Source of the DNA: a virus
Lineage: Duplodnaviria; Heunggongvirae; Uroviricota; Caudoviricetes
DNA: 4,183 bases
Virus record (IMG/VR): IMGVR_UViG_2548876950_000014
Direction: 5' to 3' (one strand)
Under the pieces are notes generated by a model, which had not been told where the DNA came from, did not search any database, and saw only the letters and a list, made by a program, of their open reading frames with translations. The translations under genes were made by a program, and so were the position numbers. This document shows, in pieces, positions 1 to 4,183 of the stretch. How positions within the stretch are numbered: position 1 is the stretch's first letter; every line of letters begins with the position of its first letter.

Positions 1-1413
1 CGTGCTCAACAGGGGGATCTTTTCACCGCTTGTGCCAAGTTCTCTTAAACCAAGGTATTGGATAACGGCTAGTGTGCTTGTTTTAGCCAGAATATCGCGA
101 CCGACTGACGTTAAATCAGTCTGCGCTACCGTATCCTTACCGGTGAAATAAGGCAGTTTGTTTGCACCAGTCGCAAGGCCAGCGAGCGCGGTTAAAGTTG
201 CATCCAGAGGCTGTTTGCCTGCCAGCGCATTTGTCATTGTTGTCGCAAAGTTCGGGTCATTGCCAAGTGCTGCGGCAAGCTCATTCAGGGTATCAAGAGC
301 TTCTGGTGATGAACCAACCAATGCGGATATGGCAGCTCTTACATAAGCGGTCGTAGCAATCTGCGTGTTATTCGTACCCTGTGCGGCGGTCGGCGCAGTA
401 GGGACACCCGTTAATGCAGGGCTTGCCAAAGGCGCTTTGAGAGCCAGGGCATTGTTGATAGTTGTGCTGAAATTCGGGTCGTTATTGATCGCAGCCGCTA
501 TTTCTTTCAGCGTATCCAGTGTGCCAGGCGCACCGTTGATAAGTGCAGTTATAGCTGCCTTAACAAAGGCTGTATTTGCGATCTGCGTGCTGTTTGTACC
601 TTGCGCTGCCGTCGGCGCGGTTGGCATTCCTGTCAGACTCGGGCTTTCTATTGGCGCTTTGGTATCAGCAAGATCTTTTACAGACTTAACGGCTTTAGGG
701 GTCGCCGCCATTGTTTCGCTGTCGCTGTTAGTTTCGCTACTGAGCTGAACTAATCCCTTTTGCGTTGTGCTTGCATCCTGCGCCGTATACTTGCTTTTTG
801 CCAGATCGTAGGCTTTTTTAACCGCCAGCGAACTTGCCGCAACATCACTTCTGGTACTGGTTACAGAGTCTGAAATATCAATGCCGATCGTGCGGTTAAT
901 ACGCTCGGATGTATCAATCATCTCCTGGGTAATGGCAGATACGCCAGCAGGGATATTCACCGTACAAACAAGCAGTTCCCCATCTCCCAACTGATATGAA
1001 TCGGTATAGGTTCTGGTAACAAATTCAGCCGCATGAATATGTGACGCTGTATTAACCTGATAGGTATCCTCTCCAAGGAGATATCTTCCCTTCAGCACAA
1101 TTGCATATTTCTTACCTGCGCTAAGTGCAAGAGAAATATCCTTACGATGCTGAATAGTTACCTGGTAGAATTCACCAATATCAACTGACGCAGCGCCAGC
1201 AGTTTTATCACCATCCACTGAGGTGATTAACAGGTTCATCCCACCGCCAGGCTTAGGTAAGAAACCGGCATAAAATCCCGGGTCAACAATCCCCCTGAAT
1301 TTTCGGTTTAGCGCGGCTGACAGATATGGTTCGTGGTATTGCACATCAGCCACCAGAGCCAACGACTCGGGTGATGGGTAAGTAACCGATGTAACAACTG
1401 TAACGTCATTCAT
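1..1413 (-). CDS. phage tail fiber protein, N-terminal 471 codons; gene continues past the window start (C-terminus not in window)
   Basis: Manual minus-strand translation in the frame ending at 1413 (ATG = revcomp of 1411..1413) has no stop codon down to position 1 and begins MNDVTVVTSVTYPSPESLALVADVQYHEPYLSAALNRKFRGIVDPGFYAGF. It is absent from the ORF track, apparently because it has no stop inside the window. It contains TQKGLVQLSSETNSDSETMAATPKAVK, SPALTGVPTAPTAAQGTNNTQIATTAYV, ALDTLNELAAALGNDPNFATTMTNALAGKQPLDATLTALAGLATGANKLPYFTG and VGRDILAK, which match from memory the conserved shaft motifs of P2 gpH and lambda Stf. AAGGA Shine-Dalgarno lies 8 nt upstream of the ATG. Confidence 0.9.
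   Translation of the reverse strand, partial: MNDVTVVTSVTYPSPESLALVADVQYHEPYLSAALNRKFRGIVDPGFYAGFLPKPGGGMNLLITSVDGDKTAGAASVDIGEFYQVTIQHRKDISLALSAGKKYAIVLKGRYLLGEDTYQVNTASHIHAAEFVTRTYTDSYQLGDGELLVCTVNIPAGVSAITQEMIDTSERINRTIGIDISDSVTSTRSDVAASSLAVKKAYDLAKSKYTAQDASTTQKGLVQLSSETNSDSETMAATPKAVKSVKDLADTKAPIESPSLTGMPTAPTAAQGTNSTQIANTAFVKAAITALINGAPGTLDTLKEIAAAINNDPNFSTTINNALALKAPLASPALTGVPTAPTAAQGTNNTQIATTAYVRAAISALVGSSPEALDTLNELAAALGNDPNFATTMTNALAGKQPLDATLTALAGLATGANKLPYFTGKDTVAQTDLTSVGRDILAKTSTLAVIQYLGLRELGTSGEKIPLLST
217..660 (-). repeat. in-frame tandem duplication inside the tail fiber gene, 2 units of 222 bp (74 codons each; units 217..438 and 439..660)
   Basis: Peptide unit B KAPIESPSLTGMPTAPTAAQGTNSTQIANTAFVKAAITALINGAPGTLDTLKEIAAAINNDPNFSTTINNALAL is followed directly by unit A KAPLASPALTGVPTAPTAAQGTNNTQIATTAYVRAAISALVGSSPEALDTLNELAAALGNDPNFATTMTNALAG. 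At nucleotide level the plus-strand string atctgcgtg recurs at 359 and 581, exactly 222 nt apart, with about 40 nt of near-identity after it and divergence elsewhere. The segment after unit A (KQPLDATLTALAGL) looks like a degenerate start of a third unit. Confidence 0.85.
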
Positions 1414-1421
1414 CAAGCATA

Positions 1422-1426
1422 TCCTT
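1422..1426 (-). promoter_or_regulatory. Shine-Dalgarno (AAGGA) for the tail fiber gene, overlapping the TAA stop of the upstream 144-aa gene
   Basis: Minus strand reads gcaTAAGGAtatgcttgATG; the TAA stop of the 1425..1859 gene forms part of TAAGGA, 8 nt before the fiber ATG at 1413. Confidence 0.5.
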
Positions 1427-1859
1427 ATGCTGTAGTCGTGTTTATGGCCATAACTGCGGTATATGTTTTGCCCACATACAGCGAGTCTTCCTGGACACAA
1501 ATAATGGCGATTGGCTTGTTCTCGTTATCCAGTACAACCAGAGTGTTGAATGGGTAGTTTTTCCCTTCCTGCAACTGGCTTTGATCAAGGTCCATTCGGA
1601 CAGTAATTATCCCACCTGAGTAGGTTGGCACGAGGTTGATGGTGCAAAATTGACTGGTTAGTTCTGCCAGATCGAAAGCCTTTGGCAGTTCTCCAATCTC
1701 ATAAGTGCCATCTCCTTTCTTAGTAACCAGCGAACTGGTTCCGAAAACGGCCTTGCTGATTAAAAATCGAGAGCCTTTGTTAATGGACGATTCAGCGCGC
1801 CGCTGATAGTAATAGTCCAACAACTGACTCTTATAGAGGTTTGTTGAGACGTCAGACAT
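1425..1859 (-). CDS. hypothetical phage structural protein, 144 aa, immediately upstream of the tail fiber gene; possible baseplate or fiber-attachment component
   Basis: Complete ORF in the track (MSDVSTNLYKSQLLDYYYQRR...). It is co-oriented and 11 nt from the fiber start, with its stop inside the fiber SD. ATG at 1859 is preceded by a weak GGGAA SD-like motif (ttaGGGAAaatcATG). It sits between baseplate and fiber genes. No family recognised by eye. Confidence 0.7.
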   Translation of the reverse strand: MSDVSTNLYKSQLLDYYYQRRAESSINKGSRFLISKAVFGTSSLVTKKGDGTYEIGELPKAFDLAELTSQFCTINLVPTYSGGIITVRMDLDQSQLQEGKNYPFNTLVVLDNENKPIAIICVQEDSLYVGKTYTAVMAINTTTA

Positions 1860-1910
1860 GATTTTCCCTAATCAATGTTGTGAAGCCTCATTGTAAGATA
1901 AGTAACTTGT

Positions 1911-1933
1911 CACCCCGCCCTGCGGACGGGGTG
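1911..1933 (-). terminator. GC-rich stem-loop just downstream of the stop of the 278-aa gene, in the only sizeable intergenic gap (1860..1937); possible attenuator or mRNA-stability hairpin, not a canonical intrinsic terminator
   Basis: Plus strand caccccg (1911..1917) is the exact reverse complement of cggggtg (1927..1933). On the minus-strand RNA, CACCCCGUCCGCAGGGCGGGGUG can form about 10 bp (7 Watson-Crick, 1 G-U, 2 inner G-C) around a 3-nt loop. The downstream sequence ACAAGUUACUUAUCUUAC is U-containing but not a clean U-tract. Confidence 0.3.
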
Positions 1934-1937
1934 ATTG

Positions 1938-2774
1938 TCAGGCATCGCTATCCAGCAGCAAATCATCTGCGCGGGTGCGATCAAACGTAGGCGTCGATTT
2001 CACAATAGTGCCGCCCGGCGTTGCAGTGATCGGGGCGCTAATCGAGGTAACTCCAGTAAGCGAAATTGTATCCGAAGTTTCAAACCAGCAGTACGCTTTT
2101 TCGGTATCAGAAATCTCGTTCAAAGTGATCATGTCGGCGTGTTCATTTACAACAACCGACAAATAGAGCGTAAGCCCATCAAACACTATATGCAGTGGCA
2201 GTAGAGGCTTTACGAACTGATTAAACTTTCTGAGAATTTCTTCTGTAATTGCGGACTGATCTATCGTGCCAGTAATACCCATTGTCCGGGCCAGGTCGTT
2301 TATGGGAATACTGATCATCCCTCTGGAAGTCAGAAACATCTCGCCGAATGTGCCGCCGGTAGTCTCCAATGTGCTTTCTGGTATTAGAACTGTGCCATAG
2401 GGATGACGCTCAAGGTCCACCGGTGCATATATCGGATCCCATAAAACAGAAATACCGTTAAATTCGCGGTAAATTGTCTGGTTTATAGGACGTTCAGTTC
2501 CCTTAAAGTGGATCTCATCAAGCCGCTGTTGTAACAACATCGGAACGGAAGATGAGTTCGAGGTTCTGATAGTAAAGAACTGGCCAAGTTCATTTGTCCT
2601 GGTCTCCAGATCCTCCTTGCTCATGGAGAAAATAGACTTCCGGTTGGTAATTCGCTCCAACCATGGGTCAACAAAGGTGTCCATCATTGACTGAATCAAA
2701 TCAGCCAATGATTTATAGAGCAATGACTTTTGCTTAGCTGATGTAAGCCGGTTATTAAACCAGGAACGCTGCAT
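1938..2774 (-). CDS. hypothetical phage baseplate or tail protein, 278 aa, translationally coupled to the upstream baseplate J-like gene
   Basis: ORF track gives 1938..2777 (279 aa, MMQRSWF...), but codon 2775..2777 is GTG only 1 nt after the AGGAGG run. The ATG at 2774..2772 sits 4 nt after AGGAGG and shares its A with the TGA stop of the upstream gene (TGATG), so I place the start at 2774. Position between a J-like wedge gene and the fiber suggests a wedge or fiber-attachment role. No family recognised by eye. Confidence 0.75.
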   Translation of the reverse strand: MQRSWFNNRLTSAKQKSLLYKSLADLIQSMMDTFVDPWLERITNRKSIFSMSKEDLETRTNELGQFFTIRTSNSSSVPMLLQQRLDEIHFKGTERPINQTIYREFNGISVLWDPIYAPVDLERHPYGTVLIPESTLETTGGTFGEMFLTSRGMISIPINDLARTMGITGTIDQSAITEEILRKFNQFVKPLLPLHIVFDGLTLYLSVVVNEHADMITLNEISDTEKAYCWFETSDTISLTGVTSISAPITATPGGTIVKSTPTFDRTRADDLLLDSDA

Positions 2775-4183
2775 CACTCCTCCTCATACGAAATATTAAA
2801 GGTGGAGTTTTCTGTATCCAGATAAACGAAATCGTAAAAGCCGTTGGACTCATTCCACTCGACAAATTCCAGATAAAAGTCGCGGAAATAACCCAGCGTT
2901 TCGATAAACGCCCAAACGTCTTTTTTCTTAATCAGGATGTACTTCCCGACGCGGTTCGGATCAAAGAAAGTTGAGTCGCGCCCAAATTTTGTTTCCAGTG
3001 CCGACTTCAGCTCATCGGTCACATTCTCAATGGTCAGGCTTGCCGATATCCGTCCGGTGATGGTTATCTTAAATGGTAGTTTTCTGACCTCTTTATACGA
3101 GAATTTCTTGTTCAACTCATTCGGCACCTTCTTAAAGGCAGCCAGGATCATTTCTTCAAGCTCTGACTGGCTTTTATTTGGATGCCACCCTGAAATAAAT
3201 ATCTTATTGATATTCCGAACATTATAAGCACCATCTAATTTCTCTTGCTGGCCTTCGCCCCATGCCTTTACCCAGGACAGTCCCGGGATGTTACGCACCA
3301 GAAAATACGTATAGTCCCCGCCCCATACGACCTGATCATCATAGGCAAGGTAATATTGTGCACGGTTACGTGTGATCTCCGTTGTTTCGGCATCGGTACC
3401 TGCGGTTATAGGTGTCGTTGTCTTAACTGAAATCAAATTAGCTAAATTAGCCGCAGAATCGACAGGCGTCAGGTTTTGGCCAGCAACCAGGGTTATATCG
3501 CCGTTGGTGCACCATACCTTAAGCGTAATGGTCGAGCCTTCTGGCGGTATTTGCCCAATTAGCCCATCACCGAATCGAACCCCCAACTGCTCGGATGGTT
3601 TATAAAACTCAACGTAGACCTGGCTTTTACTACCGGCTAACCGGAACATAGTGCTGGAAGACCACTGCGTGGTCTTACCATCGGTCGTCACGAATACTTC
3701 CAGCTTATAGCAGACAGCAGTGAGAGCCTTTGATAACACGACTTCCAGAAATTCTTTGGCTGCCGTAACGGTATATGTCACCTCCTGGATTTCCAACTGT
3801 GCCACTTCTACCGTACCGGTGCCGTCAACCAACCTGCATACATCCATAGTCATGTAAGGATACTGGTCGTCAGATATTAAAGGCATGTTTTTGGGGATTA
3901 CCGCTGGGGCATCTTCACTTGTGGCGGTGATCTCAATCATCCCCGATGACGGTGTTGGCTTGGTACCAACGTAACTATTCGTTTCTGCCGCTGCCAGGAT
4001 AGAAGAACGCCGCGTCGCGGTCGATATAAAGCCTTCAGCCAGCGCCGCATCGGCATACTGAAAGCACCTGTAGACAATCTGGGTAATAAACAATGTCAGC
4101 ATCGAGACAAATTGAGAGCCGACAAACTTGAACCGCCCCGGGTTTCCTGGAGAGTGTTTTATCTGTGAACTCAGGCTGCCAGA
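2774..4183 (-). CDS. baseplate J-like wedge protein (T4 gp6 / P2 gpJ / Mu gp47-type); probably 5'-partial, reading frame open to the window end
   Basis: ORF track reports 2774..4102 (442 aa from the first in-window ATG). Translating upstream of 4102 in frame (…SGSLSSQIKHSPGNPGRFKFVGSQFVS-MLTLF…) gives no stop up to 4183, and there is no SD before the 4102 ATG (caatttgtctcgATG). The segment AGTDAETTEITRNRAQYYLAYDDQVVWGGDYTYFLVRNIPGLSWVKAWG resembles from memory the Baseplate_J signature (acidic A-E-T/S-D-E block, then R.R, then GG..Y and PGV/L). Only about 25 residues precede the FISTATRR region where J-family proteins usually have more, which also suggests the true start is upstream. Confidence 0.75.
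   Translation of the reverse strand, partial: SGSLSSQIKHSPGNPGRFKFVGSQFVSMLTLFITQIVYRCFQYADAALAEGFISTATRRSSILAAAETNSYVGTKPTPSSGMIEITATSEDAPAVIPKNMPLISDDQYPYMTMDVCRLVDGTGTVEVAQLEIQEVTYTVTAAKEFLEVVLSKALTAVCYKLEVFVTTDGKTTQWSSSTMFRLAGSKSQVYVEFYKPSEQLGVRFGDGLIGQIPPEGSTITLKVWCTNGDITLVAGQNLTPVDSAANLANLISVKTTTPITAGTDAETTEITRNRAQYYLAYDDQVVWGGDYTYFLVRNIPGLSWVKAWGEGQQEKLDGAYNVRNINKIFISGWHPNKSQSELEEMILAAFKKVPNELNKKFSYKEVRKLPFKITITGRISASLTIENVTDELKSALETKFGRDSTFFDPNRVGKYILIKKKDVWAFIETLGYFRDFYLEFVEWNESNGFYDFVYLDTENSTFNISYEEE
2779..2784 (-). promoter_or_regulatory. Shine-Dalgarno (AGGAGG) for the 278-aa gene, embedded in the final Glu codons of the upstream gene
   Basis: Minus strand reads tat GAG GAG GAG TGA TG: the C-terminal YEEE codons of the J-like protein spell GAGGAGGAG, 4 nt upstream of the ATG at 2774. 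Confidence 0.55.

Follow-up and report, generated by a model that had tools for sequence, protein, structure and literature searches.

Does a contractile-tail module found by itself on a short contig belong to a prophage or to a phage-tail-like bacteriocin? The question is raised by a 4,183-nt stretch of viral DNA (IMG/VR record IMGVR_UViG_2548876950_000014; hereafter, the window), which an initial annotation, made from its letters, described as four coupled, co-oriented baseplate and fibre genes that could be assigned to neither type of element. R-type tailocins, such as the R-pyocins and carotovoricin, likewise combine a contractile-tail baseplate with a target-determining fibre; the known ones derive from P2- or Mu-like tails, are chromosomal, and carry no head genes. 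Phage P1, a temperate myovirus, normally persists as a ~90-100-kb plasmid.

The window matches the tail region of phage P1

In full, the window makes up draft contig AIBK01000284.1 (4183 bp), which stops in repeats at either end and so leaves no flanks to examine in this record. Its positions 1-4129 match phage P1 (NC_005856.1) over 4129 bp without a gap and at 96.8% DNA identity, the P1 counterpart being region 36429-40557 (window position = P1 position minus 36428), which holds cixR, Sc, R, LPs, 16, and bplA. Gene order is the same in both sequences, cixR and LPs are identical, and the window carries the same b1/b2/a1/a0 repeats as P1 (Table 1). Over these same positions, the P1-like phage-plasmids pIDPH14614-2, CP099272.1, and phage JL22 are 98.2-99.1% identical to the window: the match to JL22 (ON018986.2) is gap-free at 98.2%, and ~98-kb P1-like plasmids of E. 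coli also align without gaps at 99.0-99.1%, with pIDPH14614-2 (NZ_CP077462.1, an O111:NM plasmid) at 99.0%. Every P1-family match stops at window position 4129.

All four genes gave full-length matches to PHROG tail families (E ~1e-85 to 0), and their products are 97-99.8% identical to P1 S, R, gp16, and BplA, from which they differ at 13 of 471, 1 of 144, 4 of 278, and 1 of 451 amino acids, respectively, with no internal stops. The reading of these genes as contractile-tail baseplate and fibre components is thus borne out, and so is their co-orientation, since the four intact frames all lie on the minus strand. Tail genes do not extend across the whole window: its last 54 nt are the terminus of an IS629/IS1203 element and its first 52 nt lie inside the Cin-invertible C segment. 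Plus-strand ORFs (365-748 and others) were discarded as artefacts antisense to S, 16, and bplA. Genes other than bplA display no decay: substitutions relative to P1 are largely silent and seldom change an amino acid, and these reading frames are apparently under purifying selection. Fifty of the 132 mismatches to P1 fall within the first 400 nt, in the region of repeat b2, beside cixR, and this clustering suggests mosaicism of the fibre.

Table 1. Features of the 4,183-nt window, in window coordinates
Feature	Position	Strand	Remarks
Start of S variable part (first 52 nt of Cin-invertible C segment)	1..52	.	P1 C-segment boundary 36480/36481 = window 52/53
cixR, Cin recombinase crossover site	43..62	.	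20/20 identical to annotated P1 cixR, TCTTAAACCAAGGTATTGGA; crossover between 52 and 53
Sc, constant N-terminal part of tail-fibre gene S	53..1413	-	S frame open, without stops, through cixR up to the left end of the window
Tandem 74-aa fibre repeats in Sc, b2 (214-435) and b1 (436-658)	214..658	-	Transferred from P1 annotation
Fibre repeats adjoining the b repeats	a1 658-789, a0 790-825	-	Transferred from P1 annotation
Gene R, baseplate wedge/tail-fibre attachment protein, 144 aa	1425..1859	-	1 aa differs from P1 gpR
LPs, Lpa-dependent late promoter	1890..1908	-	19/19 identical to annotated P1 LPs; -10 at 1890-1895, -22 box at 1900-1908
GC-rich hairpin directly after gene 16 stop	1910..1934	-	TCACCCCGTCC-GCA-GGGCGGGGTGA; spacer fold -25.9 kcal/mol; identical in P1
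Gene 16, baseplate structural protein, 278 aa	1938..2774	-	4 aa differ from P1 gp16
bplA, T4 gp6-like baseplate wedge gene; first 78 nt (codons 1-26) missing	2774..4129	-	1 aa differs from P1 BplA residues 27-477
Terminal 54 nt of IS3-family IS629/IS1203 element	4130..4183	-	Last four transposase codons; stop codon at 4171-4173

A late promoter separates gene 16 from gene R

Profile searches matched gene R to PHROG 2032 (E=7e-85) and, on an identical product, to PF26881 (Phage_P1_tail_fiber_R), whereas gene 16 matched PHROG 2015 (E=6e-148) and PF26903 (Phage_P1_Gp16). The exact R protein is widespread, with 21,410 blocks in an exact-protein look-up. In P1, S, R, gp16, and BplA have all been detected in the virion and assigned to the baseplate by mass spectrometry, gp16 being virion-associated and R, also found in the virion, being named a T4 gp8-like baseplate wedge (PMC9024508). 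As in P1, BplA (a T4 gp6-like wedge protein), gp16, and R of the window would be baseplate components and S the tail fibre.

The description of these genes as coupled stands for two of the three junctions, with bplA and 16 overlapping by one base (TGATG) and R and S lying 11 nt apart, but not for 16 and R, which are split by a 78-nt spacer that holds a strong hairpin and the P1 late promoter LPs. By sequence, then, an Lpa-dependent late promoter made up of a -10 and a -22 box precedes R, as is typical of Punavirus. We infer that the hairpin acts as a terminator or as an RNA stabiliser. Scanned for sigma-70 promoters and terminators, the 16-R-S spacers returned no calls, consistent with a late promoter without a -35 element and a hairpin without a T-run. 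With both signals in the 16/R spacer, the module therefore divides into two transcription units: Lpa-activated LPs would drive late transcription of R-S-U, and bplA and 16 would belong to an upstream operon.

The fibre gene leaves the window just beyond the Cin crossover site

Gene S starts with an ATG at position 1413 and runs off the left end of the window after 471 codons, with matches to PHROG 454 (tail fibre, E=0) and to Pfam Phage_fiber_2 (E=6.8e-28). Another Punavirus trait is evident here, namely a constant S part joined at cixR to the Cin/cix invertible segment; the cin gene and cixL themselves fall beyond the contig. The left end itself lies in repeated DNA, window positions 1-63 also matching the cixL side of P1, inverted, at 92%. 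Within Sc, repeats b1 and b2 share 51 of 75 aligned amino-acid positions, and since their DNA is only 63% identical, TRF called no tandem repeats in the window.

In P1, Cin flips the C segment and thereby fuses Sc at cixR to either of two receptor-binding C-terminal parts, which switches host range. The receptor-binding variable part of S lies beyond cixR, outside the window, and only the constant, baseplate-proximal Sc is present; the targeting module of which the initial annotation speaks is hence not in the window. The Gin-Pin-Cin systems of phage Mu, Shigella, and e14 follow the same principle, a serine invertase joining a constant fibre N-terminus to alternative C-termini, and Mu is 92-94% identical to parts of the P1 C segment according to the P1 annotation. 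That variable segment, however, is outside the window, and the baseplate genes found here are P1-specific (PF26903, PF26881).

An IS629/IS1203 element interrupts bplA

Where P1 continues into the start of bplA, an IS629/IS1203 element replaces everything upstream of codon 27 in the window. Positions 4127-4183 (TGAACCGCCCCGGGTTTCCTGGAGAG...) are identical at 57 of 57 nt to the end of an annotated IS1203-family copy in NZ_CP049847.1, and the features of the IS629/IS1203 group are in place, with a terminal inverted repeat that begins TGAACCGCCCCGGG and a transposase 3' end ~40 nt inside; the opposite end of the element and its target duplication fall beyond the contig. Two P1-like plasmids, pEcoUTI1e (NZ_CP049847.1) and NZ_CP038378.1, also carry an IS3-family (IS1203-type) insertion within the same 4-kb tail module, but at sites that differ from that of the window: pEcoUTI1e has it in S, with a copy of IS26 beside the truncated 3' fragment, whereas the window has its IS in bplA. 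The junction is absent from pIDPH14614-2, CP099272.1, and JL22. A 124-bp junction probe retrieved no records at >=80% coverage from 5,426 complete E. coli genomes, searches of IMG/VR, GTDB representative genomes, and JGI metagenomes with a 34-nt exact probe were likewise negative, and no single-piece full-length match to the window was found among the best phage and plasmid matches listed.

The longest remaining bplA ORF starts at Met36 (ATG at 4102) and encodes 442 aa. BplA matches PHROG 1369 from profile position 33 onward, and Pfam Gp6-like_1st is covered at profile positions 43-74 in the Met36 ORF versus 23-74 in full-length P1 BplA. An exact look-up of the 442-aa product led to two short, unrelated contigs that are not the source of the window, their DNA identities to it being 96.6% and 98.8%; that of the edge-running 469-aa product led to nothing beyond the 4183-bp contig itself. 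The RefSeq product name for BplA, 'bleomycin hydrolase', conflicts with the P1 baseplate annotation and looks like a mis-annotation.

With bplA interrupted at codon 26/27, the full set of essential virion genes is not present. Insertion of the IS after codon 26 would abolish full-length BplA, shorten its gp6-like helical domain at the N-terminus, and exert polarity on bplA-16. Loss of function is predicted from the sequence, and the interrupted copy probably cannot build a baseplate; a defective P1-type prophage of this kind would persist as a plasmid and make neither infectious particles nor functional tails. The interruption bears on the function of the element, not on its descent.

P1-type relatives inspected carry head genes, and most copies reside on plasmids

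pIDPH14614-2, CP099272.1, and JL22 are complete genomes with P1-type head, tail, packaging, immunity, and plasmid-maintenance genes. Two of them, JL22 and pIDPH14614-2, were inspected in full. JL22 encodes portal, Pro, major capsid, sheath, PacA/PacB, Lpa, C1, Cre, RepA, and ParAB; pIDPH14614-2 covers 100% of the JL22 portal, pro, mcp, sheath, pacA, pacB, lpa, c1, and cre genes, alongside repA/parAB of its own. In this respect the relatives of the window differ from R-type tailocins, being complete phages on plasmids.

R-16-bplA occurs in 468 of 5,426 complete E. coli genomes, at 483 places, 473 of which are on plasmids and 10 chromosomal; 98% of the copies thus reside on phage-plasmid-sized replicons, and the best 25 whole-window matches in E. 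coli are all plasmids of 90-110 kb. In the same genome set, the P1 capsid gene was found in 775 records, pacAB in 609, and the tail module in 470. Capsid and packaging genes are therefore no rarer than the tail module, leaving no surplus of head-less tail modules. Among the chromosomal cases, NZ_CP015229.1 carries a P1-like block with an ISEc10 insertion and a pseudogenised ddrB that adjoins a Mu-like prophage, and the genes surrounding its module follow P1 in order and size. At a further locus, in a chromosome of 4.7 Mb, an IS26-type element truncates sit.

Because head and plasmid genes are present in JL22 and pIDPH14614-2 and 473 of 483 copies are on plasmids, the element is, on sequence grounds, a P1-family (Punavirus) phage-plasmid and not a tailocin. 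The initial view that the window cannot tell the two apart was fair for 4 kb read without tools, but comparison with P1 and P1-like phage-plasmids (97-99% identity over 4129 ungapped bases) largely settles the matter. An integrase, attachment-site repeats, and a tRNA at the boundary had been proposed as diagnostic; since P1 lysogenises as a plasmid, their absence would not indicate a tailocin, and the test is unsuited to plasmid prophages and would mislead. The choice between prophage and tailocin moreover left out what is most likely here, a P1-type prophage whose bplA is split by an IS. Indeed, we hold it highly probable that the window is the Sc-R-16-bplA segment of a P1-family (Punavirus) prophage, probably defective through the IS in bplA. 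We infer that the element is located on a plasmid in the strain carrying the window, and that head genes lie elsewhere in that genome.

Other readings of the locus

The apparent purifying selection on the other reading frames, together with the intact cixR and LPs, would also suit a functional, inducible P1-like phage-plasmid that either tolerates the IS through a BplA started at Met36 or has an intact bplA copy that was missed or collapsed in assembly. The IS transposase and bplA read in the same direction, so that a shortened Met36 protein might be made by read-through transcription from the IS. However, codons 1-26 are gone, there is no in-frame start between the IS end and Met36, with a stop just inside the IS, and a Met36 start cuts the gp6-like N-terminal helical domain from profile positions 23-74 to 43-74. 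In T4-type baseplates, this N-terminal helical region reportedly forms the conserved core bundle of the wedge (Taylor et al. 2016). A second, intact copy could in principle be hidden by the draft assembly, but had an intact allele co-existed, the assembly would be expected to branch, and the contig instead runs on unbranched for 54 nt into the IS. We consider a functional phage-plasmid very unlikely. A chromosomal or decaying P1-like remnant, bounded or fragmented by IS elements rather than kept as a plasmid, has precedents in the 10 of 483 chromosomal places, in the NZ_CP015229.1 block with its ISEc10 and pseudogenised ddrB, and in the 4.7-Mb chromosome with its IS26-type truncation of sit, and IS629 is present in the window as well. 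Against a base rate of ~2%, best whole-window matches that are all 90-110-kb plasmids, and the lack of decay in genes other than bplA, this origin appears decidedly unlikely.

That P1-derived tail genes are being maintained as an R-type tailocin, with S as its targeting fibre, might be entertained on the grounds that the window contains only tail genes with unseen flanks, and that invertible fibre genes occur in a tailocin too, namely carotovoricin. Yet every relative inspected has head and packaging genes, 98% of the copies are on phage-plasmid-sized replicons, head genes are commoner than the tail module rather than rarer, and the chromosomal copy examined (NZ_CP015229.1) is an integrated P1-like element with P1-like gene order around the module. 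Nor are the baseplate genes intact, as a tailocin would need them: bplA, an essential wedge gene, is cut at codon 26/27, and a killing particle would not be assembled either. A literature search found no description of a P1-derived tailocin. We regard this explanation as exceedingly improbable. Scarcely more credible is a P1 derivative stripped of head and packaging genes that survives either as tails alone (tailocin-like) or as a pure plasmid, the IS629 being part of the remodelling. No observation made here speaks in its favour; if true, it would mark either the first tailocin of P1 lineage or a phage-plasmid caught on its way to becoming a plasmid.

Implications

The S/R/16/bplA block with its Cin inversion is among the best-studied phage tail-fibre regions and is already known, and the present case matters little beyond correct annotation. 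Homology answers the question of phage or tailocin in favour of a P1-type phage-plasmid. The predicted knockout of bplA by IS629/IS1203 would be a further example of IS-mediated inactivation of phage-plasmids, a process that can lock a phage-plasmid into a plasmid-only lifestyle.

Gene content and relationship to P1

Megablast aligned window positions 1-4129 without gaps to P1-family DNA, at 96.8% identity to bacteriophage P1 (NC_005856.1, 36429-40557), 96.7% to P7, 97.6% to RCS47, 98.2% to phage JL22 (ON018986.2) and 99.0-99.1% to E. coli plasmids of ~98 kb. An ORF scan of the whole window placed every long reading frame on the minus strand, and the plus-strand ORFs were discarded as antisense artefacts within the tail genes. 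The products of the four frames matched PHROG profiles over their full lengths (E-values 7e-85 to 0), being called tail fibre (S), tail-fibre assembly protein (R), 'tail tube'/baseplate protein (gene 16) and baseplate protein (bplA), while Pfam recognized Phage_fiber_2 repeats in S and Gp6-like_1st plus Baseplate_J in BplA. Together, frames and profiles bear out the initial annotation of four co-oriented contractile-tail genes. With respect to P1, amino acid differences amount to 13/471 in S, 1/144 in R, 4/278 in gp16 and 1/451 in BplA, with no internal stop in any of these frames, and both the Cin crossover site cixR (20/20 bases) and the Lpa-dependent late promoter LPs (19/19 bases) are unchanged. 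The S/R/16/bplA module itself is textbook P1 and already known. Mismatches to P1 cluster: 50 of the 132 fall in positions 1-400, that is, the b2 repeat region of Sc (the constant N-terminal part of S) adjoining cixR, as against 0-8 per 200 nt over most of the window elsewhere, a pattern suggestive of a fibre gene made mosaic by recombination.

Features of the window
Feature	Position	Strand	Remarks
bplA	2774-4129	minus	frame open from right edge to 2774; first start codon at 4102, 442 aa
gene 16	1938-2774	minus	278 aa; one-base overlap with bplA stop (TGATG)
R	1425-1859	minus	144 aa; 78-nt spacer separates it from gene 16
S	start 1413, 11 nt beyond R, then off left edge	minus	471 codons
cixR and C-segment boundary	43-62		crossover between 52 and 53; transferred P1 annotation
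Sc, constant part of S	53-1413		transferred P1 annotation
Fibre repeats b2, b1, a1, a0	214-825		transferred P1 annotation
Late promoter LPs	1890-1908		transferred P1 annotation

All four proteins (S, R, gp16, BplA) were detected by proteomics of the P1 virion, and the same study placed R (T4 gp8-like) and BplA (T4 gp6-like) in the baseplate wedge (PMC9024508). Many E. coli plasmids carry BplA under the PGAP name 'bleomycin hydrolase' (e.g., NZ_CP077462.1, 52705-54138), which clashes with the P1 baseplate annotation and looks like a mis-annotation; newer RefSeq records under window 2774-4129 read 'baseplate J/gp47 family protein'.

The genes had also been described as coupled, which holds only in part. 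In the 16-R spacer (1860-1937), a strong GC-rich hairpin (1910-1934) directly follows the gene 16 stop and precedes LPs, an arrangement that is P1's save for one base (1937). Hairpin and promoter thus part the two genes and set R-S(-U) aside as a separate late transcription unit. The hairpin may serve as a transcription terminator or RNA stabilizer; LPs of P1 requires the activator Lpa, late in infection.

Phage-plasmid or tailocin

An exact-match search with the product that runs off the contig edge identified the window as the entire draft contig AIBK01000284.1 (4183 bp; assembly GCA_000446745.2), so that the record has no flanks to inspect and the choice between phage and tailocin, initially left undecided, rests on relatives. 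Both ends stop 52-54 nt into repeated DNA, an inverted repeat on the left and a multicopy IS on the right, which we infer to be typical short-read assembly breaks. On the left, positions 1-52 fall inside the Cin-invertible C segment, and an inverted match to positions 1-63 (92%) was found on the cixL side of P1 as well.

JL22, nearest to the window among phage records, has genes for portal, Pro, major capsid, sheath, PacA/PacB and Lpa, along with C1, Coi, Cre, Phd/Doc, RepA and ParAB. At 99.0% identity to the window, plasmid pIDPH14614-2 (O111:NM strain) covers 100% of the JL22 portal, pro, mcp, sheath, pacA, pacB, lpa, c1 and cre genes and has its own repA and parAB. Judged by sequence, the window DNA is P1-family phage-plasmid DNA, given this identity and the head, packaging and plasmid genes of its relatives. 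The integrase, attachment-site repeats and tRNA proposed initially to tell phage from tailocin would mislead here, since P1 is maintained as a plasmid and a false 'tailocin' signal is to be expected.

For the distribution count, the search was limited to R-16-bplA, the P1-specific portion of the window, which was found in 468 of 5,426 complete E. coli genomes, at 473 plasmid and 10 chromosomal places. The one chromosomal case examined (NZ_CP015229.1, 1-42705) is a P1-like element integrated in the E. coli chromosome rather than a tail-only cluster, with ISEc10 splitting ddrB and a Mu-like prophage beside the tail-tube genes. Records of the P1 capsid gene (775) and of pacAB (609) both outnumber those of the tail module (470), leaving no head-less tail-module population to explain, and no description of a P1-derived tailocin was among the papers listed by a literature search. 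A head-less P1 derivative in this strain is most improbable. In some long NCBI contigs the P1-type bplA-16-R-S block is followed directly, past S/U, by tail genes of P2-like type or by lambdoid integrase regions (L005, 13939-20435; L014, 15098-20435; L009, 10447-14414); these joins could be either true recombination via shared fibre or invertase sequences or assembly chimeras.

An IS element interrupts bplA

All P1-family matches end at 4129, and positions 4130-4183 (TGAACCGCCCCGGGTTTCCTGGAGAG...) match the terminus of an annotated IS3-family IS1203 (IS629-type) element at 100% identity; the transposase of this element reads the same way as bplA and has its stop codon at 4171-4173. The IS end sits after bplA codon 26, with codons 1-26 gone (P1 BplA has 477 aa); the earliest available start is Met36, and an in-frame stop codon is located a short way into the IS. 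In the remaining ORF, the match to the gp6-like N-terminal helical domain shrinks from profile positions 23-74 to 43-74. The exact junction occurred in none of the 5,426 complete E. coli genomes, nor in IMG/VR, GTDB representative genomes or JGI metagenomes. IS3-family or IS26 insertions in S of the same tail module were seen in NZ_CP049847.1 (pEcoUTI1e; 7082-10726) and NZ_CP038378.1 (11548-16989). Such insertions in other P1-like plasmids suggest that P1-type tail genes are repeatedly inactivated by IS elements and, where IS3-family elements lie elsewhere in the module, make the bplA junction a trivial allele. A small part of the window is also matched, at 99% or higher, by over 100 records of Stx-converting phages, likely owing to the 54-nt IS629 end or to fibre repeats.

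Predicted consequences for the particle

BplA, gp16 and R build the P1 baseplate wedge, to which the fibre S is anchored through Sc; past cixR, the S frame enters either of two C-terminal halves, Sv or Sv', with U and U' as the respective chaperones. Inversion of the C segment by Cin switches host range according to the P1 annotation. The receptor-binding part of S lies outside the window, which therefore holds no targeting module, one of the two roles initially offered for the fibre. Full-length BplA is predicted to be lost through the IS insertion, with polar effects on bplA-16 also predicted. R-S still has its own promoter. The likely phenotype is a replicating prophage unable to form baseplates; such a prophage would yield neither infectious phage nor functional killing particles.
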